Shown piece by piece: positions 9,278 to 57,125 of a stretch of DNA of 64,000 bases. Below the pieces are notes generated by a model. It saw only the letters and a list, made by a program, of their open reading frames with translations, was not told the DNA's origin and did no database searches. Source of the DNA: Candidatus Eiseniibacteriota bacterium (GTDB lineage Bacteria > Eisenbacteria > RBG-16-71-46 > JABDJR01); assembly GCA_963728475.1 (NCBI GenBank), contig CAVSKL010000003.1, positions 393,573-457,572 on the forward strand. Reading direction: 5' to 3'. The first letter of the stretch is position 1, and each line of letters begins with the position of its first letter. The position numbers and the translations under genes were made by a program.

Positions 9278-9450
9278 TCACCCCTCGAGCAGCTCGGTCA
9301 GGGAACCGAGGTCGTAGCCCGCGTCCCGGAGGTCCCGGATGATGCCGGGAAGCGCTTCGGCGGTCTGCGAGCGATCGCCGGGGAGATCGTAGCCCTAGCC
9401 GTCGTGAAGCAGCACGGTCGCGCCCGGTCGGCCGACACCAAGAAGAATGA
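9278..9450 (-). pseudogene. Remnant of a CE4 polysaccharide deacetylase C-terminus with an in-frame stop (…GATVLLHDG*GYDLPGDRSQTAEALPGIIRDLRDAGYDLGSLTELLEG)
   Basis: Translation is colinear with the C-terminus of the downstream GT2-CE4 protein (ARPGAIILLHDG...ALPKIIHRLRAEGYSFVTIPELLG) but interrupted by TAG at ~9395-9397. Upstream sequence lacks homology. Confidence 0.4.
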
Positions 9451-11594: not shown

Positions 11595-11655
11595 GGTGAG
11601 ACCCTTCGGGTTCCCACCGGGCGGCCCGGCGTGGGCGCCGGGGAAGGACGGATCC

Positions 11656-15118: not shown

Positions 15119-15191
15119 GAACGGGTTCCTCCAGGCGAGACGGGCATGAACTATAGGGCCTGGGGGGCGGGGCCAGAAGGGGAAAAGGGGA

Positions 15192-15784
15192 TCAGTCGTC
15201 GTCTTCCAGCTCGATCGTGGGAAGGGGGGCGAGGACGTGGGAGTAAGCCAACCGGTGACCGCGGGACGGGTCGCGGGCGCCGTGAATGATCCCGATGACC
15301 CGGGTGATGAGGCGGTTGACCTCCTCCAGGTCCTCCGTCGAGAGCCAACCGGTGGCGCGTCCCCCCACAGGTTCCGGCGGGGCCCGTTGGGGAGAACGTC
15401 CACCGCCGCGAAGCCGGTCTCGAAATCCCGCTGGGCCATACGGATCGCTCCCCGGAGCACCCGGACGGTGGCCTGGCGCTTGGCCGGATCGTCGTGGTCG
15501 TAGAGGAGCCGCAGGCGGGGGTGAACGACCTGGAAGAGCGCCTCCTCGCGGCGGGCGGTCCGGCGGGTCCCCCCCTCGACCAGGAGGCCCACCTCGACGA
15601 GCTTTCTCACGTGGTAGTAGAGCGAGTCGGGGGTGCGCCCCACGATCCGGGCCAACTCCCGCATCGACAGGGGAGGGGCCCCGAGGAGGACGTCCACGAT
15701 CTCCTGCCGGACCTGCGAGACCAGGGCCTCGATCTGTTCGAGCCGCTTGATGGTGTAGAAGCCGTCATCTTTCTGGTGGCTCAT
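15192..15784 (-). CDS. Winged-helix (ArsR/MarR-like) transcriptional regulator. Its reading frame appears shifted at a C6 run (~15361-15367), so the C-terminal part is read in another frame ending ...LEEVNRLITRVIGIIHGARDPSRGHRLAYSHVLAPLPTIELEDDD*. As given, the N-terminal frame runs unbroken into gatE.
   Basis: N-terminal 125 aa (…EIVDVLLGAPPLSMRELARIVGRTPDSLYYHVRKLVEVGLLVEGG…) is a clean wHTH. After ~15370 the same frame turns Ser/Pro/Thr-rich, while a second frame gives a plausible helical C-terminus with a TGA at ~15192. Confidence 0.45.
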
Positions 15785-31100: not shown

Positions 31101-31475
31101 GTGAACGACGGCCGCGTCCGGCTCGTGGAGTTCCTCCGCTGGCTGACGGCGCCGGAGAGCCCGCCGCCGGAGTCCCGGGCCGCCTCTCCCGCCCGGGCCA
31201 CTCCCGGGGAGCGATCCTTCCCCGGGTGGCTCCTCGGAAACGACCCGCCCGATCCCGCTCCCAAGGCGGCCGCCGTCCCCCCGCCGGCCGGACCCGGTTT
31301 CTGGGCCTGGCTTCTCCGCCCCGAGCGGCCCGGAACGGCGAGTCCCGGTCCCCGCCCCGGCGGACCCGGTTTCTTCTCCTGGCTCTTTCTTCCCGAGAAC
31401 CCCGACCGGGCGGGGGACCGCCCCCGCCCCGGCGCTTCGGACCCTCAACGACGAGGTGGTCATGAGACCCGATAG
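31101..31475 (+). CDS. Hypothetical Pro-rich protein with three FxxWLxxPE repeats
   Basis: GTG start 5 nt after a GGGAAGGGAGGG RBS. Three repeats: RLVEFLRWLTAPESPP / GFWAWLLRPERPG / GFFSWLFLPENPD. Its 3' end overlaps the cytochrome gene start. The upstream track ORF (from 30873) uses AT-rich codons and is probably non-coding. Confidence 0.35.
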   Translation: MNDGRVRLVEFLRWLTAPESPPPESRAASPARATPGERSFPGWLLGNDPPDPAPKAAAVPPPAGPGFWAWLLRPERPGTASPGPRPGGPGFFSWLFLPENPDRAGDRPRPGASDPQRRGGHETR

Positions 31476-31947
31476 CCCCCTCTTCCACGCCAAGCACGTC
31501 TTCCGCGCGCTCATCCTCTTCCTGCTGGGCGTGGTCGCCCTGATCGTGGTGCGGTCGCTCTTGGTGCCGCCCTCCTGGGGCGCCTACGGCCACTACCGGG
31601 GGGACAGCCCCGCGGAATACAGCGCGCTCCCGGTGAGCTACCAGGGGCCCGCCTCCTGCGCCGCCTGCCACGACGAGGAGTCCAAGGCCCGCGACGCGGG
31701 CGTCCACCACACGGTGAGCTGCGAGGTCTGCCACGCCCCCCTCGCCCGGCACGTGAAGGACGGCGACGTGATCGCGGAGATGCCGGTGGCCAAGACCGAC
31801 GCCCTCTGCCTGCGCTGCCACCTCGAGCTGGATGCGCGGCCCGCCACCTTTCCGCAGGTGCAGCCCAGGAAACACATCGAGGAGCAGGGCGGCACCGACG
31901 GCCCCACCGCCTGCTTCGACTGCCACAACCCCCATTCGCCGCTTTGA
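31462..31947 (+). CDS. Membrane-anchored tetraheme cytochrome c (NapC/NirT/NrfH-like)
   Basis: One N-terminal TM helix (ALILFLLGVVALIVV) and four CxxCH motifs (CAACH, CEVCH, CLRCH, CFDCH) within ~110 aa. GAGG RBS before the ATG. Confidence 0.8.
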   Translation: MRPDSPLFHAKHVFRALILFLLGVVALIVVRSLLVPPSWGAYGHYRGDSPAEYSALPVSYQGPASCAACHDEESKARDAGVHHTVSCEVCHAPLARHVKDGDVIAEMPVAKTDALCLRCHLELDARPATFPQVQPRKHIEEQGGTDGPTACFDCHNPHSPL

Positions 31948-31976
31948 GCGAGGCCACTCCGATGGAGGATCGCACC

Positions 31977-32774
31977 ATGTCCGATGAATGCAACCGGATT
32001 GGAACCGAGGCTCCGGCGGCCCCTCCCTCCCGGCGGGATTTCCTGAGACGGGCGGCGGCGGCCGCGGCCACCATGGCCGCCTACGGGGTGGTGGGACTCA
32101 TTCTCCCCGACGACGCGGCCGGGCTCGAGACCGCCGGCTACGACTGGAACCAGCACACCTGGGTCTACCTCATCGACACCACCAAGTGCATCGGCTGCGG
32201 CTCGTGCGTGCGGGCGTGCCGGGAGGAGAACGACGTTCCCGAGGGCATGTTCCGCACCTGGGTCGAGCGCTACGAGATCCCGGTGAACGGCGAGACGAGG
32301 GTGGACTCGCCCGACGGCGCCGCCGAGGGATTCGGCCCCGACGCCTCCGGCAACGCGGTGCGCAAGGCCTTCTTCGTGCCCAAGATGTGCAACCACTGCC
32401 GCGAGACCCCCTGCATCCAGGTCTGCCCGGTGGGCGCCTCCTATCGCACCCGGGACGGAGTGGTGCTGGTGGACAAGACCCACTGCATCGGCTGCGGCTA
32501 CTGCGTGCAGGCCTGCCCCTACGGGAGCCGGTTCCTGGATCCGCGCACCCGCACCGCCGACAAGTGCACCTGGTGCTACCACCGGATCACCAAGGGGCTG
32601 AAGCCGGCCTGCGTGGAGGTCTGCCCGGTGGGAGCGCGCATGTTCGGCGACCGCCGGAACCCCGACGATCCCATCAACGACATCCTGGCCACCAAGCGCG
32701 TGATGGTCCTGCAGCCCGAGCTCTTGACCAAGCCGCAGTGCTTCTACCTGGGTCTGGACATGGAGGTCCGGTGA
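31977..32774 (+). CDS. Tat-exported 4Fe-4S ferredoxin-type subunit (NrfC/PsrB/HybA family)
   Basis: Twin-arginine signal SRRDFLRRAAAAAATMAAYG. Four Cys clusters (CIGCGSCVRACREEN, CNHCRETPCIQVCPVGA, CIGCGYCVQACPYG, CTWCYHRITKGLKPACVEVCPVGA). Alternative starts at 31944 and 31962. Confidence 0.85.
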   Translation: MSDECNRIGTEAPAAPPSRRDFLRRAAAAAATMAAYGVVGLILPDDAAGLETAGYDWNQHTWVYLIDTTKCIGCGSCVRACREENDVPEGMFRTWVERYEIPVNGETRVDSPDGAAEGFGPDASGNAVRKAFFVPKMCNHCRETPCIQVCPVGASYRTRDGVVLVDKTHCIGCGYCVQACPYGSRFLDPRTRTADKCTWCYHRITKGLKPACVEVCPVGARMFGDRRNPDDPINDILATKRVMVLQPELLTKPQCFYLGLDMEVR

Positions 32775-33961
32775 TGATTCCCGAGCTGACCGGTTATCTC
32801 TTTCCCAACGACATCCACATCCAGTGGAGCCTGATGATCGTGCTCTACCCCTACATCACCGGGCTGGTGGCGGGCGCGTTCTTGGTCTCCTCGCTCTACC
32901 ACGTGTTCGGAAAGAAGGAGTTCGAGCCCCTGGGCCGGTTCGCCCTGGCCACCGCCTTCTGCTTCCTGCTCGTGGCCACCTTTCCCCTCCTCAACCACCT
33001 TGGGCATCCGGAACGGGCGTTCAACGTGGTGGTCACCCCCAACTTCTCCTCGGCCATGGCCGGGTTCGGAATCCTCTACACCAGCTACTTCCTGCTGCTG
33101 CTGCTGGAAATCTGGTTCGTGTTCCGGGGGGACATTGTGGCGCGGGCGGTGGAGGGGCGCGGTCTCAAGCGGGCGTTCTACTCGGTGCTCGCCCTCGGGG
33201 TCTACGACGTTTCGCCCAAGGCTCGGGACCTGGACCGCCGGATCATCCGGGTGCTGGCCGCGGTGGGGATCCCCGCCGCCTGCCTGCTCCACGGCTACGT
33301 GGGCTTCATCTTCGGCGCGCTCAAGGCCAACCCCTGGTGGTCCACCCCGCTCATGCCGGTGATCTTCCTGTTCTCGGCCATGGTCTCGGGGATCGCGCTC
33401 CTTATCGTGCTCTACCAGGTGGCGATGAGGCTCAAGGGCTGGCCCATCGACCAGGCCGCGATCTCGGCCCTGGCTCGGTGGCTATGGCTCTTCCTCATCA
33501 TGACCGTGACCCTGGAACTCCTCGAGATCATGACCCTGAGCTACATGAAGGCGGAATCGTGGGAGGTGATCAGCCACCTTCTCACCCACCAGCTCTCGAT
33601 CTCGTTCATCGCCATCCAGATGGTACTGGGTGGGCTTATCCCGCTGATCCTGCTCATGTTCGTGGTGCTCCTGGACCGCTACATGCATCCGACGATCCGG
33701 AACACGCTCACCTTCATCTCGTCCTCGATCCTCCTGGTCCAGGTGATCTCCATGCGCTGGAACGTGGTGATCGGCGGCCAGATGTTCTCCAAGAGCATGC
33801 GCGGCTTCCGCGAGGCCTACGTGCCCGGCCTTTTCGACAAGGAGGGGATCGCGGCGGCGGTGGTCATCCTCATCCTGCCCTTCATCCTGCTCCTGGTGTT
33901 CGAACGGGTGCTGCCGACTTTTTCGCACCTCAACCCGCCGGCCGGAGCCCCGGAAGCCTGA
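32774..33961 (+). CDS. NrfD/PsrC-family integral membrane quinone-interacting subunit
   Basis: ~395 aa, 8-10 TM helices, the N-terminal MIPELTGYLFPNDIHIQWSLMIVLYPYITGLVAG is typical of NrfD/PsrC. ATG overlaps the upstream stop (TGATG). Confidence 0.85.
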   Translation: MIPELTGYLFPNDIHIQWSLMIVLYPYITGLVAGAFLVSSLYHVFGKKEFEPLGRFALATAFCFLLVATFPLLNHLGHPERAFNVVVTPNFSSAMAGFGILYTSYFLLLLLEIWFVFRGDIVARAVEGRGLKRAFYSVLALGVYDVSPKARDLDRRIIRVLAAVGIPAACLLHGYVGFIFGALKANPWWSTPLMPVIFLFSAMVSGIALLIVLYQVAMRLKGWPIDQAAISALARWLWLFLIMTVTLELLEIMTLSYMKAESWEVISHLLTHQLSISFIAIQMVLGGLIPLILLMFVVLLDRYMHPTIRNTLTFISSSILLVQVISMRWNVVIGGQMFSKSMRGFREAYVPGLFDKEGIAAAVVILILPFILLLVFERVLPTFSHLNPPAGAPEA

Positions 33962-34058
33962 GCTCCCGGCAGCCCGTCGAACAGCCGGTCCCGGCCGCGC
34001 CGGCCGGCTCTTGCGAGCAGATCCAGCGACGAGGAGGAGGCGATGCCCCCGCACATCG

Positions 34059-35450
34059 CTAGCGCGCGGCCCCCGTCGGGGGGCCGCCCACCCGTCCCCC
34101 CCGGGCCCGGAAGTAGGCCCGGGTCTCCCGGGCCACCAACCCGCTCAGGAGAAGGAGCCCGATCAGGTTCGGAAGCGCCATGAGCCCGTTCATGACGTCG
34201 GAGAGCGTCCACACGAACTCCAGGCTTCGCACCGTGCCCACGAAGGCCGCGATCACGAAGAGCACCCGGTAGGGAACCACCGTCCATGATCCCAGCAGGT
34301 ACTCGATGCTCTTCTCGCCGTAGTAGCTCCACCCCAGGAGGGTGGAGAAGGCGAAGGTGGCGAGCCCCACCGCCACCAGCCAGCCTCCCCAGCTGCCGGG
34401 AAGCCCGTCCCGGAAGGCGAGCTGGGTGAGGTTCGCTCCGTCCAGCCCCGACCGCCAGGCCCCGGTGGCCACGATGGTGAGCCCGGTGAAGGAGCAGACC
34501 ACGATGGTGTCGATGAAGGTCTGGGTCATGGATACCAGGGCCTGGGTGGCGGGTTCGCTGGTCTGGGCGGCGGCGGCGGCGATGCCCGCCGAGCCCAGGC
34601 CGGACTCGTTGGAGAAGATGCCTCGGGCCACCCCGAACCGGATCGCCCGGGCCACCGCCACCCCCGCGAACCCCCCGGCGGCGGCGGCGGGGGTGAAGGC
34701 GTCGCGCAGGATGAGCGCGATCGCGCCGGGGATCGCCCCGGCATGGAGCGCGAGGGCCACCCCGGAGCCGGCCATGTAGAGCACGATCATGATCGGCACG
34801 AAGAAGCCGGTGAAGCGGCCGATGGACTTGATCCCGCCCAGGATCACCGCCCCGGCGGCCAGCGCGATCACCACCCCGGTGAGCCACATGGGGATGTGGA
34901 AGGAGTGCTCGAGAGCGGAGGCCACCGAGTTCGACTGCACCATGTTGCCGATCCCGAACGCGGCCACCGCCGCGAAGAGCGCGAACAGGATGCCGAGGGC
35001 CTTGCCCAGCGGCCCGCGGATCCCCTGGGTGAGGTAGTACATGGGACCGCCCGCCTGCTCGCCCCGCCGGTCCACCGTCCGGAATCTTACGGAGAGGAAT
35101 GCCTCGGAGTACTTGGTGGCCATCCCGACCAGTCCGGTCATCCACATCCAGAACATGGCTCCGGGGCCGCCGGCGGAGATCGCGGTGGCCACCCCCACGA
35201 TGTTCCCGGTCCCGACCGTGGCCGCGAGCGCGGTCATGAGCGCTTGGAAGTGGGAGATGTCCCCCTCGGCGCCCGGCTCCCGGCGCACCACCAATCCCAA
35301 GTAGAGCGCGCCCCAGAGCTTGGAGAACTGCACCCCGCGAAGCCGCAGGGTGAGAAAGAGTCCGGTCAGGAGCAGGAGCGGGATGAGCAGCCACGGTCCC
35401 CAGATGAAGCCCGAGGCCTGGTTGAGGAGTTCGGTGAGCCGGGTGAACAC
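34059..35450 (-). CDS. Alanine/glycine:cation symporter (AGCS family)
   Basis: ...[55 protein letters not shown]... is a conserved AGCS signature. ~460 aa, 11 TM helices. Confidence 0.9.
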
Positions 35451-35623
35451 GCGCGCGCCCTCCTTGCGGTGACGGTCGACCCTCGGCGTCCGCGGTGGGG
35501 CGCCCCGATCGGGGGATATCCTAATATCGGCCGAGTAAAATGGCTAACCCGGAGCGAGAGCGGAATCGGAAGGGGGAGACGGCCTCTCGGAGGGGGGAGG
35601 AGCATGCGCCCGCGTGGACCGGC

Positions 35624-35670
35624 GCCTTTGAAGGTGCTAGTCTAACAAACTACTCATAGGCAAATATAAT
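35624..35670 (+). promoter_or_regulatory. AT-rich promoter-like region with a perfect TATAAT hexamer (~35665-35670) upstream of kaiC
   Basis: Read in sequence (ctactcataggcaaatataatcttatcc). Local AT-richness stands out against ~70 % GC. Confidence 0.25.
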
Positions 35671-35680
35671 CTTATCCGGG

Positions 35681-37177
35681 GTGCGCCAAAAGATTGGGGG
35701 AACCGTGAAACGAACACAGGGGAACTCCACTTCGGTGCCCGTCGCGGTCCAGCCCATCGTGAAGATCCCGACCGGCATCCGGGGGCTCGACGCCATTCTT
35801 GACGGAGGGCTCCCCCGTGGACGGATGACCGTGCTGGCCGGGGGACCGGGAAGCGGCAAGACCGTACTTGCCCTGGAGTTCCTCTATCGCGGGGCCCTGG
35901 CCGGGGAGCCGGGGATCTTCATCACCTTCGAGGAAGCGGCCGAGGATCTCCGTGCCAACGCCGCCGCGATGGGCATGGACGTGGCGCCCCTCGAAGCTTC
36001 CGGAATGCTCCGGATCATGCATGCCAAGGTCCCCCACCAGGCGATCCATGCCGGTGAGTTCGACCTCCAGGGCCTGCTGGCGATCCTGGACGGACAATTC
36101 CGGTCCGTGGAGTCCGGGCGGATCGTCCTGGATGCCGTCGACGTTCTCATGCGGATCTTCGGCGATCCGAGGCGGGAACGGGTGGAACTGCATGTTCTGA
36201 ACGACTGGCTGCGCGCACGCGGAGCGACCTCGGTGGTGACCGCCAAGGCCGGGCGGGAGGGAAGGCAGATCTATCCCTTTCTCGACTTCATGTCCGACTG
36301 CGTTCTCCTCATCGATCAGCGCATGGAAGGGCAGGTCCGGACGCGCCGGTTGAGCGTGATGAAATACCGGGGATCGGGCTTCCTCGAGAACGAGCACCCG
36401 TTCGCCATCTCCCCCCGGGGGGTGGTCCTGCTGCCGGTCGCCTCGACGGCGCTCTCCGATCGAAGGATCGACCGGCGCATCTCGAGCGGCCACGAGCAGC
36501 TGGACGTGCTCCTCGGGGGAGGGTATCTCCAGGGATCCTGCATTCTGCTGGCGGGTCCGAGCGGCGCCGGAAAGACGACTCTCGCCTGCACCTTTGTCGA
36601 GCGCGCTTGCCGGAGGGGTGAGCGGGTCCTTTATCTGTGCCTGGACGAGGCCCATCAATCGCTCCTGGTGGAAATGAAGAACGAGGGAATCGATCTGGAG
36701 CCGGCGGCCCACGCCGGAACGATCGCGTTCCAGGACATCATGCCCGAGACGGACGGCGTGGAGCAGCATCTGCTGAAGATTCTCGATGCGATCGAGGAAT
36801 TCGAACCGCACCACGTCATCGTCGATTCCATCTCGGCGGTCCAGCGGATGGGTACCCGGTCGGCGGCCTTCGACTTTCTGCTTCGCCTTCTCGCCGAATC
36901 CAAGCGGCGGGGGATCACCTGCTTCTTCACCAATCAGATTCTGGACCTGGAGCGGGTCACCGGGGACGGCGGAGAGGGGGTTTCTTCCCTGGTGGACACC
37001 ATGGTGGGCCTCCAGTACGAGGACGACGGCCGGAGGTTGCGGCGGCGGCTGCTGGTGATCAAGTCGCGCGGCACCGGCCATTCCATGCTCTATCACCGGT
37101 TTGAAATCACCGGTCACGGCATCGAACTGGCCGACGACGATCGGTCTCGGAAAGGCGAGGAGGACGGTGATCGGTGA
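35681..37177 (+). CDS. kaiC: KaiC-family double RecA-like ATPase/autokinase
   Basis: Two RecA-like domains, with Walker A GGPGSGKT and AGPSGAGKT. The KaiC-typical N-terminus is IPTGIRGLDAILDGGLPRG. Alternative GTG start at ~35705 after a GGGGGA RBS. Confidence 0.85.
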   Translation: MRQKIGGTVKRTQGNSTSVPVAVQPIVKIPTGIRGLDAILDGGLPRGRMTVLAGGPGSGKTVLALEFLYRGALAGEPGIFITFEEAAEDLRANAAAMGMDVAPLEASGMLRIMHAKVPHQAIHAGEFDLQGLLAILDGQFRSVESGRIVLDAVDVLMRIFGDPRRERVELHVLNDWLRARGATSVVTAKAGREGRQIYPFLDFMSDCVLLIDQRMEGQVRTRRLSVMKYRGSGFLENEHPFAISPRGVVLLPVASTALSDRRIDRRISSGHEQLDVLLGGGYLQGSCILLAGPSGAGKTTLACTFVERACRRGERVLYLCLDEAHQSLLVEMKNEGIDLEPAAHAGTIAFQDIMPETDGVEQHLLKILDAIEEFEPHHVIVDSISAVQRMGTRSAAFDFLLRLLAESKRRGITCFFTNQILDLERVTGDGGEGVSSLVDTMVGLQYEDDGRRLRRRLLVIKSRGTGHSMLYHRFEITGHGIELADDDRSRKGEEDGDR

Positions 37178-37491
37178 TCGGTGACCAGGAACCGGCCTCG
37201 CCAGGTCCCGTAAAGGAGAGAGCCGTCGACCGGCTGGTCCTGTTCGTGGCCGGGGACGAGTTCAACAGCCGCCTGGCCAAACGGAACTTGGCGGAGATCT
37301 GCAGCGGAAGGCGGTGCGAGGACTTCGCGGTCGAGATCGTGGACGTCCTTACGGACTCCGCGCTTGCGATCGAACACAACATCCTGGTCACCCCGACCCT
37401 GCTGGTGCTGACCGGGGGCCGGGCGACGATGGTGATCGGAAACCTGAGCGACCGGCAGGAAGTCCGCTCGGCGTTGCGATGGAAAGAGTGA
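37174..37491 (+). CDS. kaiB: KaiB-like thioredoxin-fold protein
   Basis: 105 aa, ...LVLFVAGDEFNSRLAKRNLAEICSG...EIVDVLTDSALAIEHNILVTPTLLVL... GTG start overlaps the kaiC stop (GTGA). Confidence 0.8.
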   Translation: MIGDQEPASPGPVKERAVDRLVLFVAGDEFNSRLAKRNLAEICSGRRCEDFAVEIVDVLTDSALAIEHNILVTPTLLVLTGGRATMVIGNLSDRQEVRSALRWKE

Positions 37492-37492
37492 G

Positions 37493-39310
37493 ATGGGTGA
37501 AGACCTGAACCGGCTTCGTGAGCGGCTTGCCCGGGCCGAGGAAGTCCTGAGGGCGCTACGGGCGGACGAGATCGATGCCGTGATCGGAAATCGGGGCGTC
37601 GCGCTCCTCCGCCTGGGTGCCTTGGAACGGGCGCTGCGGGAGAGCGAGGAACGCCTCCACCTGGCGCTCGACGCGGCCGATCTCGCCACTTTCGAGATCG
37701 ATCTCGGGACGGGCAAGATCTCGAGCGCGACCGGGATCTGGAAGATGCTGGAACCCGGACCGGACCGGACGCCGGCGACGTTTGACGAATGGATCGGATT
37801 GATGCTTCCGGAGGACCGGGACCGGGTGAGAAAGGCTATCGAGCGTTCGTACGCCACCGGCGAGAAATACGAGATCGAGTACCGCATCCGCTGCGCGAAC
37901 GGAGAGGTCCGGTGGCGGCGCGGCAAGGGAGGCCCGGCTTCCGCGGACGGGAAGTCTCCCGACCGGGTAACCGGGGTCGTGGTGGACGTCACCGCGAAGA
38001 AACAGGCCGAGGCGGATCTGCGCAGGAGCCGCGACGAGCTGGAAAAGAGGGTGATGGAACGCACCGCCGAGCTCTCGGAGGTGGTGGCGGCCCTGAGGGA
38101 AGAGGCGGAACGCCGGATTGTCGCCGAGGAGGAGCTGCGCGAGCGCTCGGAGCGCTTGAGCGCCCTCTCCGCGTCGCTGACCCTCGCCGAGCAGCGGGAA
38201 AGGGAGAGACTGGCCCGGGTGCTCCACGACGGACTGCAACAGTACCTGGCCGCGGCCCGATATCACCTCGCCTCCCTGAAACACTCCACCGACCCCGTCG
38301 CTCTCGAGACCGAGAAGGAGGTGGATGGCCTCCTCTCCGAAGCCATCGAGACCGGACGCCTTCTGACCGCGGAGCTGAGCCCGCCGGTCCTCATCGAGGG
38401 AGGACTCGGGAGCGCGATGGAGTGGCTGGCGGCCTGGATGGAGGACAAGCACGGCCTCGCCGTGGATCTGGAGATCGAAGGCCGCCTCGACGGCGTCCGC
38501 AGGGACGTCGCCGTCCTCCTCTTCGAGAGCGTCCGCGAGCTTCTCTTCAACGTGGTGAAGCACGCCGGGGTCAAGACGGCCCACGTCCGGGCCTCTTCGC
38601 AGGGACCACAGCTCAGGATCGAGGTTTCGGACCGGGGGGTGGGCTACGATCCCCGGAAACTCATGGCCGGTAACCGGGGCTCGACAAGGTTCGGACTTCT
38701 CAGCATCGCGGAGCGCCTCGCCCTGCTCGGCGGGGAGATGGAGGTCGAGGGCTCGCCGGGCGAAGGGACGCGATTCACCCTGACCGTCCCTCTCGCCAAG
38801 TCGACCGAGGCGCCGGCAGCCAAAGCGGCCGGCCGGGGGCAGGAGCCGGCGCCCGCCGACGACACCGAAGCGGAATGCGACGACGCCCGGATCCGCCTGG
38901 TGCTGGTGGACGACCACACGGTGATGCGCCAGGGATTGGCGACGCTGTTGCGGGACGAACGGGACATGGTGGTGGTCGGAGAGGCCGCCGACGGCGAAAC
39001 CGCGGTCCGGGTGGTCTGCGAGGTTCACCCGGACGTCGTGCTCATGGATGTGTCCATGCCGGGCATGAACGGAGTCGAGGCGACCCGGCTCGTCCATGAG
39101 CGGTGCCCGGCGGCGCGGGTGATCGGTCTGTCGATGTTCGAGGATCCGGAGCACATGGCCTCGATGATCGCGGCCGGAGCCTGGGCCTACCTCGGCAAGA
39201 ACGGGCCGGCCGATAAGTTGCTGGACCACATCCGGAGGGCCGGCCGCACCATCCCCCGGAACCGCTCCGCCATCCGGCGCCCGCACCCCCCCAAAGAGCT
39301 TCGCTTCTGA
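37493..39310 (+). CDS. Hybrid sensor histidine kinase (PAS - HisKA_3 - HATPase_c - REC)
   Basis: PAS domain with ...EIEYRIRCANGEVRW.... NarL-type H-box LHDGLQQYLAAARYHL. G1/G2 boxes. C-terminal receiver IRLVLVDDH...VVLMDVSMPGMNG. Confidence 0.85.
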   Translation: MGEDLNRLRERLARAEEVLRALRADEIDAVIGNRGVALLRLGALERALRESEERLHLALDAADLATFEIDLGTGKISSATGIWKMLEPGPDRTPATFDEWIGLMLPEDRDRVRKAIERSYATGEKYEIEYRIRCANGEVRWRRGKGGPASADGKSPDRVTGVVVDVTAKKQAEADLRRSRDELEKRVMERTAELSEVVAALREEAERRIVAEEELRERSERLSALSASLTLAEQRERERLARVLHDGLQQYLAAARYHLASLKHSTDPVALETEKEVDGLLSEAIETGRLLTAELSPPVLIEGGLGSAMEWLAAWMEDKHGLAVDLEIEGRLDGVRRDVAVLLFESVRELLFNVVKHAGVKTAHVRASSQGPQLRIEVSDRGVGYDPRKLMAGNRGSTRFGLLSIAERLALLGGEMEVEGSPGEGTRFTLTVPLAKSTEAPAAKAAGRGQEPAPADDTEAECDDARIRLVLVDDHTVMRQGLATLLRDERDMVVVGEAADGETAVRVVCEVHPDVVLMDVSMPGMNGVEATRLVHERCPAARVIGLSMFEDPEHMASMIAAGAWAYLGKNGPADKLLDHIRRAGRTIPRNRSAIRRPHPPKELRF

Positions 39311-39451
39311 CCCCACTTTCAGCAACCGGGAGCGGGGGCCGGACGCGGTATACTTTCCGGACCTGAGCTGCATTGAAGGGCTTGGGCCGGTCCACCGGGG
39401 CTGAGCCCAATGCGATCGACGACCGGGGCCCCGGTCCAGCCCGAGGACACG

Positions 39452-42400
39452 ATGACACGCCGATTCCTCCCGGCCGCTGCCTTGATGCTCGCCGCCCTCG
39501 CCTTCGCCCCCGCCCGGGCCGGCGAGACCGCCAATCCGCCCATCTACATCGCCTTCCTCTGGCACATGCACCAGCCCATCTACTGGCCGTATGAATCGGT
39601 GGTCGCGACCGACGCCAACCAGCGCTACGGCTACTCGGTCACCGACATCCACAATCAGCGGCTGGGGCCGTACACCTCGTGGCCCAAGGACGCGGTCTCG
39701 GCCGGGGTCGCCGCCGGTATGCCGCACTTCGGCGCCCAGGTGAGCTTCTCGGGCTCGCTCATGGAAAACCTGAACTCCCTGGAAGCCGCCGGGAACGGCA
39801 ACTTCCAGAACTGGAAGTCGTCCTGGGATTGGATCAAGACCCAGACCACCTCGCTCGGCAATCCCCGGCTCGACATGGTGGGCTTCGGTTACCACCACCC
39901 GCTCATGGGGCTCCTGGGCACCCTCGACATCGAGCGGCAGATCGAGGCCCACCGGAGCATGATGGCCTCGAACTTCAGCGGGTCGTACTCGAAGGGCATC
40001 TTCCCGCCCGAGGACGCCTTCTCGGCCCGGATGATCCCGGCGCTGGCCGCCGAGGGGCTCCGGTGGGTGCTGGTGGACAACCTCCACTTCGACCGCGCCG
40101 CGGCGGGCTACCCGTACAACACCGGCGGGAACGTCGTGGAGCCCAACCGAGCCGACCAGCGGAATCCGGATCCGGGCGACTGGGTCCAGCTCACCGATCT
40201 CTGGGCGCCCACCAGGATCTCCGGCGGTTGGGGCCACCGGCCGCACGTTGCCGAATACGTGGATCCGGCCTCCGGCCAGGTGTCGCGGATCGTCGCCGTT
40301 CCCGCCGACCGCTACATGGGGAACGAGGACGCCCGCGGGGGGTTCGGGGCGCTCCAGTACGACGACGTGATGAGCCAGCTCGAGCCCTACAACACCGACC
40401 CCGCGCATCCGCTCCTGGTGGTGCTCCACCACGACGGGGACAACTACGGGGGCGGGACCGACAGCTACTACCACTCCAACTTCGACGCCTTCGTGAGCTG
40501 GCTCCAGGCCAGCCCCTCGCGGTTCGTGTGCACCACCGTCCAGGACTACCTGGACCGGTTCCCCCCGGACACGAGCGACGTCATCCACGTGGAGGACGGG
40601 AGCTGGAGCGGCGCCGACAACGGCGACCCCGAATTCAAGAAGTGGCTGGGCGACCCCGCCGCCGACGGCTACAGCCCCGACCGGAACAGCTGGGCGGTGG
40701 TGACCGCGGCCCGGAACATCGTGTCCACCGCGGACGAGGTGGCGCCGGGGTCGCCGGAGACCGCGCTGGCCTGGCACTACCTGCTGAACGCCGAGGCCAG
40801 CGATTACTGGTACTGGGACGGGTCTCAGGGGGGCGTCTGGGATTCGCATCCGACGCGCGCGTCCAATCTGGCGGTGCCGCACGCGTTGAACGCGATCGGG
40901 AGCGGCGCCGACCTCACCGGGCCCACCATCTTTCTCCCCCAGCGCGAGCCCTACAACCCGGGCGGCACCGAGTGGGGGATCGCCCAGCCCCGCGACTTCC
41001 AGGTCTGGACGTTCGCGTTCGACCTTGACGGGTTGTCGTCGGTCAGCCTGAAGATCCGCGGGGACCGGGACGGGGCGCTTCCGGCCGGGTCGTCGGACAA
41101 CGATACCTATCTTGGGGGCCCCGCGGTGACCGCGTGGACCTCGATCCCCATGACCGCGAGCGACATGGCGTCGCGGACCGATCCATTGCCGCTCTATCGC
41201 GCTTCGCAGTACGCGGCCACCGTCACCGGTGTCACCGACTCGCTCCTGGATTACTACGTGGAGGCGGTGGACGGGCACGGGAACGTGTCGAGTTCGCCCA
41301 TCCGCCATGTGTGGGTGGGAACCGGCACCAGCGGCGGGGGAGGGGGGAGCGCCGGGGTGAGCTGGACGCCGCCGTCGCCGGCGGCCGAGGACTCGGTCAC
41401 CCTCACCGTGGCCGGCGCCGGGAAGGGCGGCAAGCTCCACTGGGGGGTGAACGGGTGGGGCGCTCCGGCGACGGGCTACCAGCCGGCGGGGACGGTGCCG
41501 TATAGCGGTGGTTCGGCAGTGGAGACGCCGATGGCACTCTCCGGGGGCGACCTCGCGCTCACCCTGGGGCCGTTCGACGATCCCGCCCAGCCGGTGCGAA
41601 CGCTCGACTTCGTCATCCACTACGACGACGACACCTGGGACAACAACGGGGGACAGGACTACCACGTGACGGTCACCGGCGCCGCCGCGGCGAAGACGTT
41701 CACCGTGGACGGCGCGCTCGACGCGTCGGCGGTCAAGGTGGCGTCGGCGGGCGGGGTGGACCTGTACCTGGACTACAACGGGAGCGATCTCTACGTGGCC
41801 ACTCAGGCTGCGGGAGGGAGCCAGAGCGACGCCTTCGTGTTCGTGACCGGCCCGCCCCCCGGGGCGATGGCCGCTTCGCCGTGGGCCAAGGCCGGCCAGG
41901 TGGCGGGGTGGTCCTTGTTCCTGGGGAACGAGAGCGGGAACAACTGGTGCGGCTGGACCGGCCAGGCCGGAACGGTGGCGCAGGCCGCCGGAACGTACCT
42001 AGAGGGGACGGTGAACCTGTCCTCGGAGTTTGGCTCGGTGCCGCCGGTGGTCTACGTGGCGGTCGGTCGCTACCAGACCGCCGACGGGGGGGCGCTGGTT
42101 GCGCAGGCCCCCGCGGGGAACGGAAACGGCGACCTCGAGGCCTCGGAGTACTACGCCTACGACCTCAGCGCCACTGGGGTGCCGGATGGAGCGGTCCTGG
42201 ACCCGGGTCCGCTTCTGCGGAGCTATCCCAACCCGTTTCGCGGAGCGGCCACGGTGTCGTTCCGGCTTTCGACGCGGGGCGCGGTGCGGTTGTCGATGTA
42301 CGACCTGAGCGGGCGGCTGGTGCGCGTCTTGGCCGCGCGTGAGTTCGACGGGGGGGAGCACCGGGTCGCCGTCGACGGTGCGGGCCTGGCCGGCGGGATC

Positions 42401-42463
42401 TACTTCGTGGAGCTTCGCGCGCCCGGCGTCCGCGCGTCGCAGCGGCTGGTGCTGTTGCGGTAG
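39452..42463 (+). CDS. Secreted glycoside hydrolase family 57 enzyme (alpha-amylase / alpha-glucan-acting) with middle beta-sandwich/CBM-like domains and a T9SS (Por) C-terminal sorting domain
   Basis: GH57 signature IAFLWHMHQPIYW. Signal peptide MTRRFLPAAALMLAALAFAPARA. C-terminal ~80 aa (LLRSYPNPFRGAATVSFRL...GGIYFVELRAPG...) match the T9SS CTD consensus. GAGGA RBS. Confidence 0.8.
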   Translation: MTRRFLPAAALMLAALAFAPARAGETANPPIYIAFLWHMHQPIYWPYESVVATDANQRYGYSVTDIHNQRLGPYTSWPKDAVSAGVAAGMPHFGAQVSFSGSLMENLNSLEAAGNGNFQNWKSSWDWIKTQTTSLGNPRLDMVGFGYHHPLMGLLGTLDIERQIEAHRSMMASNFSGSYSKGIFPPEDAFSARMIPALAAEGLRWVLVDNLHFDRAAAGYPYNTGGNVVEPNRADQRNPDPGDWVQLTDLWAPTRISGGWGHRPHVAEYVDPASGQVSRIVAVPADRYMGNEDARGGFGALQYDDVMSQLEPYNTDPAHPLLVVLHHDGDNYGGGTDSYYHSNFDAFVSWLQASPSRFVCTTVQDYLDRFPPDTSDVIHVEDGSWSGADNGDPEFKKWLGDPAADGYSPDRNSWAVVTAARNIVSTADEVAPGSPETALAWHYLLNAEASDYWYWDGSQGGVWDSHPTRASNLAVPHALNAIGSGADLTGPTIFLPQREPYNPGGTEWGIAQPRDFQVWTFAFDLDGLSSVSLKIRGDRDGALPAGSSDNDTYLGGPAVTAWTSIPMTASDMASRTDPLPLYRASQYAATVTGVTDSLLDYYVEAVDGHGNVSSSPIRHVWVGTGTSGGGGGSAGVSWTPPSPAAEDSVTLTVAGAGKGGKLHWGVNGWGAPATGYQPAGTVPYSGGSAVETPMALSGGDLALTLGPFDDPAQPVRTLDFVIHYDDDTWDNNGGQDYHVTVTGAAAAKTFTVDGALDASAVKVASAGGVDLYLDYNGSDLYVATQAAGGSQSDAFVFVTGPPPGAMAASPWAKAGQVAGWSLFLGNESGNNWCGWTGQAGTVAQAAGTYLEGTVNLSSEFGSVPPVVYVAVGRYQTADGGALVAQAPAGNGNGDLEASEYYAYDLSATGVPDGAVLDPGPLLRSYPNPFRGAATVSFRLSTRGAVRLSMYDLSGRLVRVLAAREFDGGEHRVAVDGAGLAGGIYFVELRAPGVRASQRLVLLR

Positions 42464-53223: not shown

Positions 53224-53868
53224 TCAGCGGAAGAGGCCGCTCCGGATCGCCTTCGCCACCGCTTCCGACTTCGAGTGGACGTGGAGCTTCTCGTAGATCC
53301 CGCGGATATGGAAGCGCACGGTGTCCTGGCTCAGCACCAGCTCGGCGGCGGCGGTCTTGTAGCTGTGGCCGTCGGCCAGAAGCTTGAGCACCTGGAGCTC
53401 GCGGGGGGAGAGGCGGCGGCCGGGGTCGCGCGGAGGAGCCGCGCGCTGGAACATGGCGACCACTTTGCGGGCGACATCCGGGGACATGGGGGCGCCTCCG
53501 GCGTGGACCTCGCGCACCGCCTCCAGGAGCCGCGCCGGCGGCGTGTCCTTCAACAGGTAGCCGCACGCCCCCGCGCAGATCGCCTCGAAGATCCGTTCGT
53601 TGTCCGAGAACACGGTGAGCATGAGGATCTGGAGTTCGGGACGCCGGTCCTTGAGCCGTCCCACCCCCTCCAGGCCGGACATCCCGGGGAGCCCGATGTC
53701 CACCAGGGCGACGTCGGAGCCGGCCGGCGCCTCCGAGGCGAGGGCGGCCTCCATGGAGTCGAAGCTCCCGCTCACCCGGAGCCCGGGGGCGGCGGCGACG
53801 AGCGCGGCCAGACCCTCGCGCACCGGGGCCACGTCCTCGATCATCAGCACCCGGATCGATCTGGGCAT
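53224..53868 (-). CDS. NarL/FixJ-family response regulator (REC + LuxR-type HTH)
   Basis: IRVLMIEDVAPVREGL...DVALVDIGLPGMSG... plus C-terminal LSPRELQVLKLLADGHSYKTAAAELVLSQDTVRFHIRGIYEKL. Confidence 0.85.
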   Translation of the reverse strand: MPRSIRVLMIEDVAPVREGLAALVAAAPGLRVSGSFDSMEAALASEAPAGSDVALVDIGLPGMSGLEGVGRLKDRRPELQILMLTVFSDNERIFEAICAGACGYLLKDTPPARLLEAVREVHAGGAPMSPDVARKVVAMFQRAAPPRDPGRRLSPRELQVLKLLADGHSYKTAAAELVLSQDTVRFHIRGIYEKLHVHSKSEAVAKAIRSGLFR

Positions 53869-53953
53869 GCTCACCTCGCCGGCGGGAAGGGTGGAGGAAG
53901 GCGGACCGCGCGAGAACCATGCCTCATCCGTCCGGTCCCGCGCCACCGCCCGT

Positions 53954-56900
53954 TCATGCGGGGGGCCTCGGGCGGGATCGCCGGATGCCGGGGATGCGGC
54001 GGCGGAAACCCGGCCACCGGCCCCTCCCCAGGGGCGCCTCCAGCCGCACCGCGGCTCCCTCCCCCGGGGCGGACTCCACCGTGCAGCGGCCGCCCAGGGC
54101 CGCCGCCCGGGCTTCCAGGTTCCCCAGGCCGTTGCCGGAGAGCCGCGCGGCGGCGGGGTCGAAGCCCCGGCCGTCGTCCCGGACCGTGAGATCGAGCCGG
54201 TTCCCCTCGACCCGGAGGCAAACCGCCATCCGGCGCGCTCCGGCGTGGCGGGCCACGTTGGTCACCGTCTCCTGGAAGAAGAGGAGCAGGTGCCGGCGGC
54301 GGTCGGGGCCGAGCCCGATCCCCCGCAATTCGCGGTCGAGAGGGACGTCGAAGTCGGTCTCCACCCCGGCCGCCCGGAGCAGGTTGAACGCGGTCTGCCG
54401 CATGCGCCGGACCAGGTCCAGGAGCCGGTCCCGGCGCGGGTCCACCGACCACACGATGTCGTTCATGGACTGGCGCAGCGCCCGCGCCCGTCCCGCGGTG
54501 TGGTCGAGGAGCGCGTCGGAAGCCTGGGTCGCGTCGCCGCGGGCCACCTCGCTCAGGATCGCGATCTCGGCCAAGCCCGACCCGACCTCGTCGTGGAGAT
54601 CGAGGGCGATCCGGCGACGGATCCCTTCCAGGGCCAGGATCCGGCGCACCCGGGCCCGGTGCCAGGCGAGGGCGGCCAGGAGGACCCTTAGGGCCGCCAG
54701 GGTCAGGAACCACGCGCGCTGGTAGAGCGGAGGGAGCACGGTGAAGGACACCGAGGCCTCGGCGGGGCCGGAAGGCGACCGGAGATCCAGCGCCTGCACC
54801 CGGAACCGGTACCGGCCGGGCGCGAGATGGGCGAAGTTCACCGAACGCTCGCCCCCGGTGTCGTGGAACCCGGAGTCGGCCCCCTCCAGCCGGTAGCGAT
54901 AGCGGAGCGGTGTCCCGGGCCGGTAACGGAGCCCCACGAACTCCACCGCGAGGTGGTCGTGGGCGGGGGAGAGGACCAAGCCGCCGAGCGCGGTGGTGCC
55001 CCGCCCGCTCAGCATCGCTTCGCGGTCGTCCACCCGCACCCGGCTCAGGTACACCCGCGGGGCCGGGGGAGGAGGCGGGTCGCCGGCCGGGTCGAGCCGG
55101 GAGAGCCCGCCCGAGGTGGCGATCCAGATCCGCCCCTGGCGGTCGGCCAGGCCGTGGTTCACCACCTCCCCGGCCAAGCCGTCGGCGGTGGTGAAGTGGA
55201 CCACCCCGCCGTGGAGGGGGTCGAGGCGGTCCAGCCCGCGCCCGGTGGCGAGATAGATCCGCCCCGCCCGGTCCTCGGCCACCCACCACACCGTCTCGCT
55301 GGCCAGTCCCTGCGGGGTGGAGTAGTTCTCGAACTCCGGGCGGTCGGCGTCCGGATCGCGGGTCATCGACACCCCGCGGTTGCGGAGGCCCAGCCACAGC
55401 CGCCCGCGAGAGTCCTGGAACAGGCAGCGGGCCTCGGTCTCGGGAAGGCCGGGGCCGGGGGCGAGCGTTTCCGCCCGCCCCTCCCGGAGGCGCACGATCC
55501 CCTGGAAGCCGGCCACCCACACCGTGCCTCCGCGGTCCTCGAAGATCTGTCGCGGCGCGAAGCCCGGGATGGAGGGAAGCGCGACCGGCTCCAGCCGGGG
55601 CGCCCCGCCCCCGTCCACCCGGCCGCAGAACAGCCCGCCGTCGCCCATCCCCACCCACAGGCGTCCGGCGACGCGGTCCACCCAGAGCCCGAGCACCAGG
55701 CGCCCGGCCGCGGGGCCCGGCACCGCCCGTGCGCGGGTGAAGTCCAGATCGGGCCCCGGGATCCGGTAGAGGCCCCGGTCGGTCCCCGCCCACCAGTCCC
55801 CGGCGGCGTCCCGGTCCAGCCGGTAGTTGAGGTTGGCGAAGCGCGGGTCGCTGGACCCCGGGACCGGGATGGCGCCGTCGCCGGACACTTCCACCACCCC
55901 GAGGCTGCCGGTGGCGTAGATGCGCCCGTCCACCCCTTCCGCGGTCAGGGTGCGCTCCAGCCCGCCGGTCTCCTCCCCGGCCAGGCTCACGATGCGCTCC
56001 CCCGAGTACTCGCACACCCCCACCGCGTTGGTGCCGATCCAGAGATTCCCCTCGTCGTCCTCGAGAAGCGTGCGCACGTAGCTGTCGGGAAGCCCCTCGC
56101 GGACGGTGTAGACCCGGGTGCGCCCGCCCGCATAGCGCACCAGCCCCCGCCTGGTGCCCACCCACAGGTCCCCGGCGCGGCCGGCGAGGAGGCAGCGGAT
56201 CTCCCCGGGATGGAGCAGCTTGACCGGGAGGGGGCTCCATCCGGCCGCCGGCTCCCGCCCGCCGCCGTCCCGGCTCACCCACACGCCGGTGGAGTCGGCG
56301 AGGTAGAGCGCCCCGTCCGAGGCCTCGGCCAGCGCGATCACCGAGGCCGGGCGCGGGCGGCCCGGCCACAGGACCGGCTCCGGCCGGTTCCCGGCCATCC
56401 GGTACAGGGCTCCCCCGGCGGCGAGCCATACCGAACCGTCCCGGCGGCAGAGGCCGGCCTCGGGTAAGGCGGGAAGGGGGATGGGGGCGAAGCGCAGGCT
56501 GTCCCCGGCCGGATCGCCGCGGAAGACCCCGGCCAGGGTGAGGCACCAGAGCGAGCCGGGGCGGTCGAAGAACAGGTTGAACACCTCGCCGGCGCGGCGG
56601 GCGGTGTCGGGGCGGAAGGCGCGGAAACGGGGGAGGCCGGCGGGGCCGGGATCGTCGAGCCGCGCCACCCCCGCCCCCCAGTCCGCCGCCCACATGCGGC
56701 CGGCGGAGTCCTCGGCCACCGCGAACAACGCCGGGCGCTCGAGCCCGGCCTCGAACCCGTAGTTCACGAACCGGTAGCCGTCGAAGCGGCTCAATCCTTC
56801 CCAGGTGCCGAACCAGAGGTAGCCCCAGCGATCCTGGTGAATGGAGGTGACGCGGCTGTGGGCGAGCCCGTCGCGCACGTCCAAGCGGCGGAGCGGCACT

Positions 56901-56989
56901 TCCTGGGCAAGGCCGGCTCCGGCGGACCACGTGGAGGCGATGAGAAGGAGGGCGGCGCCGGCGAGGGCGCGCCCCCGGCGGGGATGCAT
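53954..56989 (-). CDS. Sensor histidine kinase with periplasmic two-component-regulator beta-propeller repeats + Y_Y_Y domain, TM, HisKA_3, HATPase_c
   Basis: Repeated ...G.LW.GT..GL..Y/F... propeller blades across ~700 aa. H-box LHDEVGSGLAEIAIL. ATPase G-boxes. Signal peptide after MHPRRGRALAGAALLLIASTWSAGAGLA. Confidence 0.85.
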   Translation of the reverse strand: MHPRRGRALAGAALLLIASTWSAGAGLAQEVPLRRLDVRDGLAHSRVTSIHQDRWGYLWFGTWEGLSRFDGYRFVNYGFEAGLERPALFAVAEDSAGRMWAADWGAGVARLDDPGPAGLPRFRAFRPDTARRAGEVFNLFFDRPGSLWCLTLAGVFRGDPAGDSLRFAPIPLPALPEAGLCRRDGSVWLAAGGALYRMAGNRPEPVLWPGRPRPASVIALAEASDGALYLADSTGVWVSRDGGGREPAAGWSPLPVKLLHPGEIRCLLAGRAGDLWVGTRRGLVRYAGGRTRVYTVREGLPDSYVRTLLEDDEGNLWIGTNAVGVCEYSGERIVSLAGEETGGLERTLTAEGVDGRIYATGSLGVVEVSGDGAIPVPGSSDPRFANLNYRLDRDAAGDWWAGTDRGLYRIPGPDLDFTRARAVPGPAAGRLVLGLWVDRVAGRLWVGMGDGGLFCGRVDGGGAPRLEPVALPSIPGFAPRQIFEDRGGTVWVAGFQGIVRLREGRAETLAPGPGLPETEARCLFQDSRGRLWLGLRNRGVSMTRDPDADRPEFENYSTPQGLASETVWWVAEDRAGRIYLATGRGLDRLDPLHGGVVHFTTADGLAGEVVNHGLADRQGRIWIATSGGLSRLDPAGDPPPPPAPRVYLSRVRVDDREAMLSGRGTTALGGLVLSPAHDHLAVEFVGLRYRPGTPLRYRYRLEGADSGFHDTGGERSVNFAHLAPGRYRFRVQALDLRSPSGPAEASVSFTVLPPLYQRAWFLTLAALRVLLAALAWHRARVRRILALEGIRRRIALDLHDEVGSGLAEIAILSEVARGDATQASDALLDHTAGRARALRQSMNDIVWSVDPRRDRLLDLVRRMRQTAFNLLRAAGVETDFDVPLDRELRGIGLGPDRRRHLLLFFQETVTNVARHAGARRMAVCLRVEGNRLDLTVRDDGRGFDPAAARLSGNGLGNLEARAAALGGRCTVESAPGEGAAVRLEAPLGRGRWPGFRRRIPGIRRSRPRPPA

Positions 56990-57125
56990 CGTGTTCGGGT
57001 CCGGTCGTCGGGCGCGGAGGCGGTCCCCGCGCCGAGCGGAATCATAGCCGACCCCCATCCGCCGGATGAGCGGGGCTCGTCGCCGGTCGTCTTAACCATT
57101 TGTGGCCCTGACGGTTGCCCGGCCG

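Follow-up and report, generated by a model that had tools for sequence, protein, structure and literature searches.

A KaiA-less kaiC-kaiB-hybrid histidine kinase operon in a Candidatus Eiseniibacteriota genome and an N-terminal kinase motif that recurs beside kai genes

Systems built from KaiB and KaiC are widespread outside the cyanobacteria, where few have been studied (in Rhodopseudomonas, Rhodobacter and Legionella) and where their connections to the rest of the cell are largely unclear. How such a pair might operate without KaiA, and through which partner its state might be passed on, is the question raised by a locus on contig CAVSKL010000003.1 of a Candidatus Eiseniibacteriota bacterium (assembly GCA_963728475.1, positions 393,573 to 457,572 of the forward strand). 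These 64,000 nucleotides, hereafter the window, are the whole stretch of DNA that was analysed, and coordinates refer to it unless another locus is named. A first-pass annotation had drawn attention to a kaiC, a kaiB and a hybrid histidine kinase gene lying together. We read them, with moderate confidence, as encoding a KaiA-independent KaiC-KaiB post-translational switch, that is, an hourglass or an energy/stress sensor and not a self-sustained clock, carried in one operon with its own hybrid kinase.

The three open reading frames (ORFs) lie head to tail on the plus strand, as do all features of the locus given below, and have a third-position G+C content (GC3) of coding type in a window of ~70% G+C. 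They are kaiC (35705-37177, 490 aa), kaiB (37174-37491, 105 aa) and the hybrid histidine kinase gene (37493-39310, 605 aa). The cluster is thus co-directional and tightly packed, as first described, and the translational coupling proposed for kaiB is visible at 37174, where its GTG start overlaps the kaiC TGA by 4 nt (GTGA); the kinase ATG follows 1 nt past the kaiB stop. A GAGGAGG lies 8-9 nt 5' of the kaiB GTG, with no alternative in-frame start ahead of the KaiB domain. For kaiC, the GTG at 35705, which comes after a GGGGGA Shine-Dalgarno-like run and at which the public annotation begins the gene (P0001, 490 aa), is a likelier start than the alternative GTG at 35681 (ORF 35681-37177). The AT-rich promoter with a perfect TATAAT reported upstream is also present. 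Among all 50-nt stretches of the 64 kb, G+C is lowest at 35626-35675 (32% G+C against ~70%, with a fraction of 3e-5 of all 50-nt windows equally low), and this region holds the only TATAAT of the window, both strands counted. This -10 hexamer (35665-35670) stands 17 nt from a -35-like CTAACA (35642-35647), and the pair (35642-35670) is the sole match of a sigma-70 scan within 35300-39600. One match against a mean of 0.5 in shuffled sequences makes the scan by itself not significant, so the site stands out because it is a compositional outlier and not because of a generic promoter scan. As the 4-nt overlap and the 1-nt spacer link the genes behind this single outstanding promoter-like element, kaiC, kaiB and the hybrid kinase gene form a single operon.

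The same gene order is found in 10 of the 11 loci recovered via KaiC similarity (L001, L002, L003, L005, L006 and L008-L012), which come from Phycisphaerae, Planctomycetes, Desulfobacterales and other metagenome lineages. Because kaiC-kaiB-kinase recurs in this way in other lineages, we take the kinase to be cognate to kaiCB and not an unrelated neighbour, in agreement with the first-pass annotation, which had allowed that it might belong to an unrelated regulon. All kinases of the ten ordered loci have an N-terminal motif that is treated below. One of these loci, in the sister genome L008 (contig_7436, 1.94 Mb, ERZ25039549), shares with the window the whole neighbourhood at 31456-42463, comprising cytochrome/Fer4/NrfD genes, a Na:Ala symporter, kaiC-kaiB-kinase and a GH57 gene, at 61% identity for KaiC and 58% for the kinase. 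A conserved fourth gene encoding a response regulator or Hpt protein was considered and rejected, as the genes downstream vary between loci (GH57, Fer2/molybdopterin enzymes and others).

Some of the related loci differ in other ways. A second type of kai cluster (L023, 1485-5818, and L024, 1-7715) combines a kaiC with a long product (564-568 aa) and a tandem pair of kaiB paralogs, followed in L024 by a CheB-CheR-PAS fusion; both L023 and L024 end in a hybrid kinase with the motif variant EAEETLRAIREGEVDAVVVSG. The 589-aa 'KaiC' of L021 (P0012, 201-1970), with the kinase gene seemingly right behind it, might be taken for a KaiC-KaiB fusion or for a sign of a KaiB-less locus. Both readings were dropped, since tblastn shows an intact kaiB at 1702-1947 in another frame. 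The Arg-rich tail of P0012 is a translation of this kaiB in the wrong frame and stems from the gene call or from read-through. In L011 the kai unit lies between two stretches (3497-5510 and 10435-12464) that encode serine recombinases, a DUF2924 protein and an NTP_transf_2/HepT toxin-antitoxin pair, which suggests that the three-gene module is able to sit on a mobile element. In the window, GC3 of the module is slightly lower (0.81-0.86) than that of neighbouring genes (0.92-0.95) and, together with the flanks in L011, this is consistent with horizontal spread of the three-gene unit.

The full double-domain KaiC that had been annotated is borne out by two tandem RecA-like KaiC domains (PF06745 twice, E=1e-93) and by a PRK09302 score of 448 bits, above the cut-off of 408; the score against the cyanobacterial equivalog TIGR02655 is 265 bits, far below its cut-off of 546. 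Its catalytic motifs were placed in an alignment of the window protein with 119 homologs (120 sequences). The CI Walker A GGPGSGKT (35840-35863) contains a Lys invariant in all 120, and the CI catalytic pair E76-E77 (35930-35935) is EE in 120/120. In CII, the Walker A GPSGAGKT (36554-36577) is present, its key residues likewise invariant in the 120 sequences, and the phosphosite pair S427-S428 (36983-36988) aligns with Synechococcus S431/T432 and Rhodobacter S413/S414; a Ser-Ser pair characterises the kaiC2 subgroup (PMC10076222). Also retained are the Arg and His of two conserved motifs, KYRGS and KSRGxxH, and E348 and R381, the counterparts of the E352/R385 kinase switch of Synechococcus KaiC (PMC12065004).

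The protein departs from its homologs at five columns that are at least 90% conserved among the 119, each time conservatively. Four of these changes are trivial and the fifth is D314, the first residue of the CII catalytic pair D314-E315 (GAC GAG, 36644-36649), which puts Asp at the position of Synechococcus E318. Of the 119 other homologs, 118 have Glu there and only P0011, the KaiC of L008, has Asp. Autophosphorylation of Synechococcus KaiC relies on E318 as its catalytic base, and kinase activity is suppressed in E318Q (PMC12065004). A degenerate KaiC, lacking its catalytic Glu or its phosphosites, had been envisaged at first pass as the case that would speak against a working module, and the protein falls partly into it, with the Glu replaced but the Ser-Ser pair present. 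The near-universal Glu and the suppressive effect of E318Q would fit a CII crippled by the substitution; KaiC would then hydrolyse ATP in CI or serve as a scaffold, with no cycle of phosphorylation, and would be a KaiC-like stress ATPase and not a phospho-timer. We regard this as improbable. Asp still provides a carboxylate, the phosphosite serines and the CII Walker A are in place together with E348 and R381, and retention of the Asp in the sister genome indicates selection on a working site. Because the Asp is shared with L008 although the two KaiCs are just 61% identical, the conservative Glu-to-Asp change looks, from the alignment, like a retained lineage trait and neither an error nor decay.

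At its C-terminus KaiC ends 13 residues past 'GIELAD', ~9 charged residues beyond the counterpart of Synechococcus N485, and the alignment shows no A-loop, no KaiA-binding tail and no Rhodobacter coiled-coil extension. In Rhodobacter this extension of ~50-100 residues gives a dodecamer and replaces KaiA (PMC10076222); it is found in just 8 of the 120 aligned sequences, and close homologs of the window KaiC all have short, non-conserved tails of 12-20 residues. The first-pass annotation had left the A-loop and the phosphosites to be profiled, and of the two only the Ser-Ser pair was found. It had also noted that no kaiA is present, in line with which no match to the KaiA family was obtained among the ~45 window ORFs scanned. 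The closest solved structures are those of Rhodobacter KaiC (8DBA/8DB3, 313 bits, ~39% identity) and 8ZN5 (311 bits), Synechococcus KaiC scoring 258 bits. Homologs annotated as KaiC already number in the thousands.

KaiB matches PF07689 over profile positions 2-82 of 82 (46 bits, cut-off 27) and scores ~41 bits on the NCBIfam equivalogs TIGR02654 and PRK09301, far below their cut-offs of 145 and 110. Its C-terminus, VRSALRWKE, places Ala100 and Arg102 at the positions of G89 and D91 of Thermosynechococcus elongatus KaiB (alignment to 5JYT). G89A and D91R are engineered changes in the fold-switch-stabilised T. elongatus mutant 5JYT and occur naturally in the window KaiB, whose top PDB sequence matches are 5JYT itself, KaiC-bound Rhodobacter KaiB (8FWJ_M) and Legionella Lpp1115 (4KUN). 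Clade-mate KaiBs also have the Ala, in the pattern (R/L)xAL(R/G/H), and those beside long, Rhodobacter-length KaiCs (L023 and L024) retain the cyanobacterial 'VGLD'. The Legionella KaiB, with 'SALE', crystallized in the fold-switched state (PMC10808063). To judge mainly from the two residues and this precedent, the window KaiB probably favours the thioredoxin-like fold that binds KaiC, or is locked in it. An AlphaFold2 (AF2) model built from the single sequence (predicted local distance difference test, pLDDT, 60) has beta-alpha-beta-alpha-beta-beta-alpha topology, and a Foldseek search with it returned fold-switched KaiBs, SasA N-terminal domains and thioredoxins, with no ground-state KaiB among the top 50. 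The model counts for little here, since AF2 by default returns the switched fold even where a KaiB has a stable ground state, that of T. elongatus included (PMC10808063). KaiBs of this clade also have two conserved Cys, one where helix 1 ends and one where strand 2 begins (C-x7-C in nine relatives), the second standing for a Tyr of cyanobacterial-type KaiBs; the window KaiB has C-x4-C (residues 43-48, 37300-37317) and a Phe at the usual second Cys position. It is possible that the Cys pair is redox-sensitive.

These features bear on whether the locus might encode a self-sustained circadian oscillator with an unrecognised KaiA substitute, which we consider very improbable. KaiA3-type proteins with receiver-like domains occur outside the canonical system, and just 64 kb of the genome is in view; a KaiA3 ortholog has been mentioned in Rhodospirillum rubrum (PMC10931921). 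Set against this are the absence of a KaiA match among the window ORFs, a KaiC without the A-loop and tail on which KaiA acts, and the fold-switched-state signatures of KaiB, which would remove the slow delay step. The module-bearing relatives, moreover, are Planctomycetota and Desulfobacterales metagenome-assembled genomes (MAGs). Both groups are mostly non-phototrophic. An energy/stress switch or hourglass is favoured over a circadian oscillator because the relatives belong largely to these groups.

The kinase contains all four domains of the PAS-HisKA_3-HATPase-REC architecture originally assigned to it, in the order N-terminal motif, PAS, long helix, HisKA_3, HATPase_c, disordered linker and receiver. 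The PAS (PAS_3) sensor domain lies at 37676-37990 (Pfam residues 90-163, AF2 model). The core (38198-38797) consists of HisKA_3 (residues 236-299, PF07730, 34 bits, cut-off 24), with the H-box VLHDGLQQ and His245 at 38225-38227, and HATPase_c (residues 341-435, 38513-38797, 49 bits). The NarL-type receiver (38891-39247, Response_reg residues 470-581) has D519 at 39047-39049 and retains D473, D474, S547 and K569; the five residues are kept in 18/18 receiver-bearing kinases with the motif, if Glu is counted as equivalent to the first Asp and Thr to the Ser. An AF2 model from a 38-sequence alignment has a pLDDT of 85. No DNA-binding or output domain was found in the kinase by Pfam/NCBIfam scan. 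Homologs of the kinase core are very numerous (2006 at E<=1e-20), and a homolog search with residues 1-206 gave 10 weak PAS matches of ~200-340 aa, the query protein itself not among them.

An output pathway analogous to SasA or CikA had been suggested for this kinase, and the analogy stands at the level of function only. SasA has an N-terminal KaiB-like domain, a HisKA core and RpaA as its partner, whereas the window kinase has a HisKA_3 core and no KaiB or thioredoxin match. CikA combines GAF, a HisKA core and a pseudo-receiver, in contrast to the PAS, HisKA_3 and true receiver with phospho-acceptor Asp found here, although both proteins end in a receiver-fold domain. In Pseudomonas, KaiC homologs stand in operons with histidine or hybrid kinases as well as a single-domain response regulator but, unlike here, with no KaiB; a Pseudomonas KaiC binds its neighbouring kinase via kinase residues 1-138, at the N-terminus (bioRxiv 10.1101/2022.01.26.477890).

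The direction of signalling could also be the reverse, with the PAS domain sensing light, oxygen or redox state and with KaiC or KaiB modulated by the kinase or its receiver, as a CikA-like input that sets or resets the KaiC state. Across orthologous loci the PAS domain varies and the N-terminal motif is constant, which suggests lineage-specific signals entering a common Kai core; a PAS kinase beside kaiBC has been proposed to pass oxygen or redox signals to the clock in purple bacteria (PMC10931921), and no output regulator is encoded within the operon. We nevertheless think an input role unlikely, because a complete autokinase core and a true receiver are the normal equipment of an output phosphorelay and the Kai-associated kinases of cyanobacteria and Pseudomonas transmit the KaiC state outward. 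One role need not preclude the other, and CikA fulfils both.

The candidate point of contact between the kinase and the KaiC-KaiB pair is the N-terminal motif of the kinase (residues 1-58, 37493-37666). An alignment of kai-locus kinases gives the consensus RLxxAE....AL.....VDAVVG..GV..LRL.E.E..L with 14 invariant columns, including a DAV.G hairpin, and the PAS domains after it differ between kinases. AF2 predicts a helix (5-23), a beta-hairpin (30-37) and a second helix (41-61) running into the PAS domain. The segment has no Pfam match, a profile search of PDB sequences returned no significant relative and tblastn of the motif against PLSDB plasmids found nothing.

Loci recovered by way of KaiC are not independent evidence for a link between the motif and kai genes, and we assessed the link on searches seeded with the motif. 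In a metagenome scan seeded with the motif alone, kaiB lies immediately upstream in 8/8 confirmed loci (8 confirmed among >600 pattern matches listed). A phmmer search with residues 1-60 against 1.84 billion representatives gave ~50 single-stretch matches at target residues 1-60, the remaining matches, multi-stretch and internal, being discarded as coiled-coil noise. The motif proteins looked up from this exhaustive search and a hidden Markov model were kai-linked in 4/4 cases. P0268 and P0136 are in kaiC-kaiB-kinase loci (that of P0268 is L021, with kaiB in another frame), and two proteins with the variant motif are in kaiC-kaiB-kaiB-kinase (P0223) and kaiC-kaiB-kaiB-CheB/CheR/PAS-kinase (P0246) loci. 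The motif was therefore beside kai genes in 12/12 motif-seeded look-ups, against 0/2 controls (P0237 and P0208, kinases of like architecture without the motif and without kai neighbours). Among 38 motif proteins the cores are HisKA_3 (24), HisKA (9), HWE/HisKA_2 (1) and sigma-54/GerE (1), and 18 have a receiver. Because it is found on HisKA_3, HisKA and HWE-type kinases and on a sigma-54/GerE protein, the motif behaves as a portable kai-associated module. A limited literature search on KaiC and HisKA_3 found no description of a kai-linked N-terminal motif, which is possibly what is new at this locus.

It may be asked whether the motif is merely a dimerisation coiled coil or PAS N-cap, inherited with the operon and not docking to Kai proteins. 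Its helices are coiled-coil-like and drew many spurious coiled-coil matches in the exhaustive search, the helix at 41-61 continues straight into the PAS domain in the AF2 monomer, and many of the linked loci may share ancestry. We judge this explanation somewhat unlikely, as the motif occurs on differing kinase cores and with differing numbers of PAS domains yet stays beside kaiB in 12/12 motif-seeded cases, no kai genes adjoin those close kinase homologs that do not have it, and 14 invariant columns including the hairpin exceed the needs of a generic coiled coil. Tentatively, then, the motif may be a previously unnamed, portable Kai-docking module that replaces the KaiB-like domain of SasA by an unrelated structure, perhaps by extending the sheet of KaiB with its hairpin. 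Kinases coupled to Kai proteins would then form a class that is marked by this motif and is widespread in several bacterial phyla. With a short-tailed KaiC and a fold-fixed KaiB, the motif might constitute a third way of running KaiBC, without KaiA or a coiled coil.

The arrangement of the genes is itself already known. It is not new because kaiC-B-PAS/HK operons have been described in the purple bacteria Rhodopseudomonas palustris and Rhodobacter sphaeroides (PMC4794148), where, as here, kaiC, kaiB and a PAS histidine kinase gene follow one another behind one promoter. The Rhodobacter KaiBC hourglass (8DBA/8FWJ), which is reset by ATP/ADP (PMC10076222), likewise has no KaiA and has Ser-Ser phosphosites; its KaiC is the best solved-structure match of the window KaiC and its KaiB the second-best PDB match of the window KaiB. 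Unlike it, the window KaiC has no coiled-coil extension and has Asp instead of Glu as the CII base, and the window KaiB ends in 'SALR' where Rhodobacter KaiB ends in 'LVNL'. With cyanobacterial KaiABC the locus shares a double-domain ATPase/autokinase KaiC and a KaiB partner, histidine kinases reading the KaiC state in that system; KaiABC differs in having KaiA, an A-loop and a KaiA-binding tail, none of which is found in the window or its KaiC. The KaiBC pair of Legionella pneumophila is a stress-response Kai system of a non-phototroph. It too is KaiA-less (Lpp1115, 4KUN); its KaiB 'VISALE' resembles the window 'VRSALR', and Lpp1115 is among the top sequence and structure matches of the window KaiB. 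The locus, from an uncharacterised clade, departs from the studied systems in the absence of a coiled-coil tail, the CII Asp, the fold-switched-type KaiB residues and the HisKA_3 hybrid kinase.

A KaiA-independent switch of this composition would work as follows. KaiC hexamers would autophosphorylate S427/S428 in CII as their default state, because no A-loop holds the kinase off; reportedly, the CII kinase of A-loop-deleted Synechococcus KaiC is on by default. The Asp base may make this reaction slow. KaiB would bind the CI ring and drive KaiC towards dephosphorylation without a long fold-switch delay, and ATP/ADP would determine how far KaiC is phosphorylated, as it does for the KaiBC pair of Rhodobacter. 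The kinase would be recruited to the KaiC-KaiB complex via its 58-residue N-terminal helix-hairpin-helix and, through autokinase activity and relay from His245 to Asp519, would report the KaiC state in combination with PAS input. In this account the gene structure, the intact catalytic motifs, the conserved synteny and the tie of the motif to kai genes are observed, and the behaviour of phosphorylation, the fold of KaiB, physical docking and the signalling direction are inferred.

Several points weigh against this account. The nearest characterised KaiC is only ~39% identical, and with Asp for Glu as the CII base autophosphorylation could be much slower or lost altogether. The KaiB model comes from a single sequence at pLDDT 60, so that the fold assignment draws mostly on two residues and the analogy with Legionella, and the hairpin of the kinase motif is modelled at low confidence (pLDDT ~50). 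Docking via the motif is deduced from co-occurrence, with two negative controls, and the 8 confirmed metagenome loci over-represent close relatives. The operon encodes no output-domain response regulator or Hpt. Finally, L004, from a Desulfonatronospira MAG, is the exception to the conserved gene order, with no kinase and a truncated kaiB after kaiC (2114-2380, 88 aa, first 55 profile positions only); it is apparently a decayed copy of the module.

The NarL-type regulator at 53224-53946 was rejected as a partner of the kai kinase since it adjoins its own HisKA_3 kinase. It is the sole NarL-type regulator in the window, a REC-GerE protein encoded with a Reg_prop/Y_Y_Y HisKA_3 sensor kinase of 1034 aa (53224-57058, minus strand). 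The sole OmpR-type regulator (8229-9281) is likewise beside its own HisKA kinase, ~26 kb upstream.

The genes flanking the operon are unrelated to the kai module. Upstream are a divergent Na:Ala symporter gene and then a multihaem cytochrome/4Fe-4S/NrfD set. An alignment of the kaiC upstream region with that of L008 revealed no conserved promoter or operator around the TATAAT. Between kaiC and the symporter gene are a palindrome, CCGATCGGGGGATATCCTAATATCGG (35505-35530), partly kept in L008 (ATCCTAA ... ATCGGCC), and two copies of the direct repeat TCGGA(A/G)GGGGGAG at 21-nt spacing (35566-35599). Together (35505-35599) these could be the symporter promoter/operator or a regulator site for kaiC. 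Downstream is a gene for a GH57-family protein (39410-42463, ~1000 aa) with an alpha-glucan-binding Ig-like domain and a C-terminal sorting domain of the type IX secretion system (T9SS), its synteny with the kai operon being kept in L008 only. A secreted GH57 protein is unusual. Rfam detected no RNA family within the window. Further away, at 11656-15784 on the minus strand, are neighbouring GatD-like (Asparaginase N and C domains, GatD_N) and GatE-like genes of archaeal type, the GatE-like ORF having an N-terminal helix-turn-helix and a GatB_N catalytic domain that a GAD-like insertion interrupts. GatDE, normally a marker of archaea, sits here among Gram-negative-type genes (AcrB, OEP, TonB and T9SS tails).

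The locus belongs to a large uncharacterised clade of kai loci in Planctomycetota, Desulfobacterales and related MAGs that are without both KaiA and the coiled-coil tail, the two known means of KaiC activation. With its natural E318D-like residue in KaiC and G89A/D91R-like residues in KaiB, it offers existing variants through which the tuning of timer properties can be studied. If the N-terminal motif links the kinase physically to KaiB or KaiC, a simple sequence marker would let Kai-coupled kinases be recognised in whatever genome and, were it indeed a docking module, the partner kinases of Kai proteins in non-cyanobacteria would become predictable from sequence.

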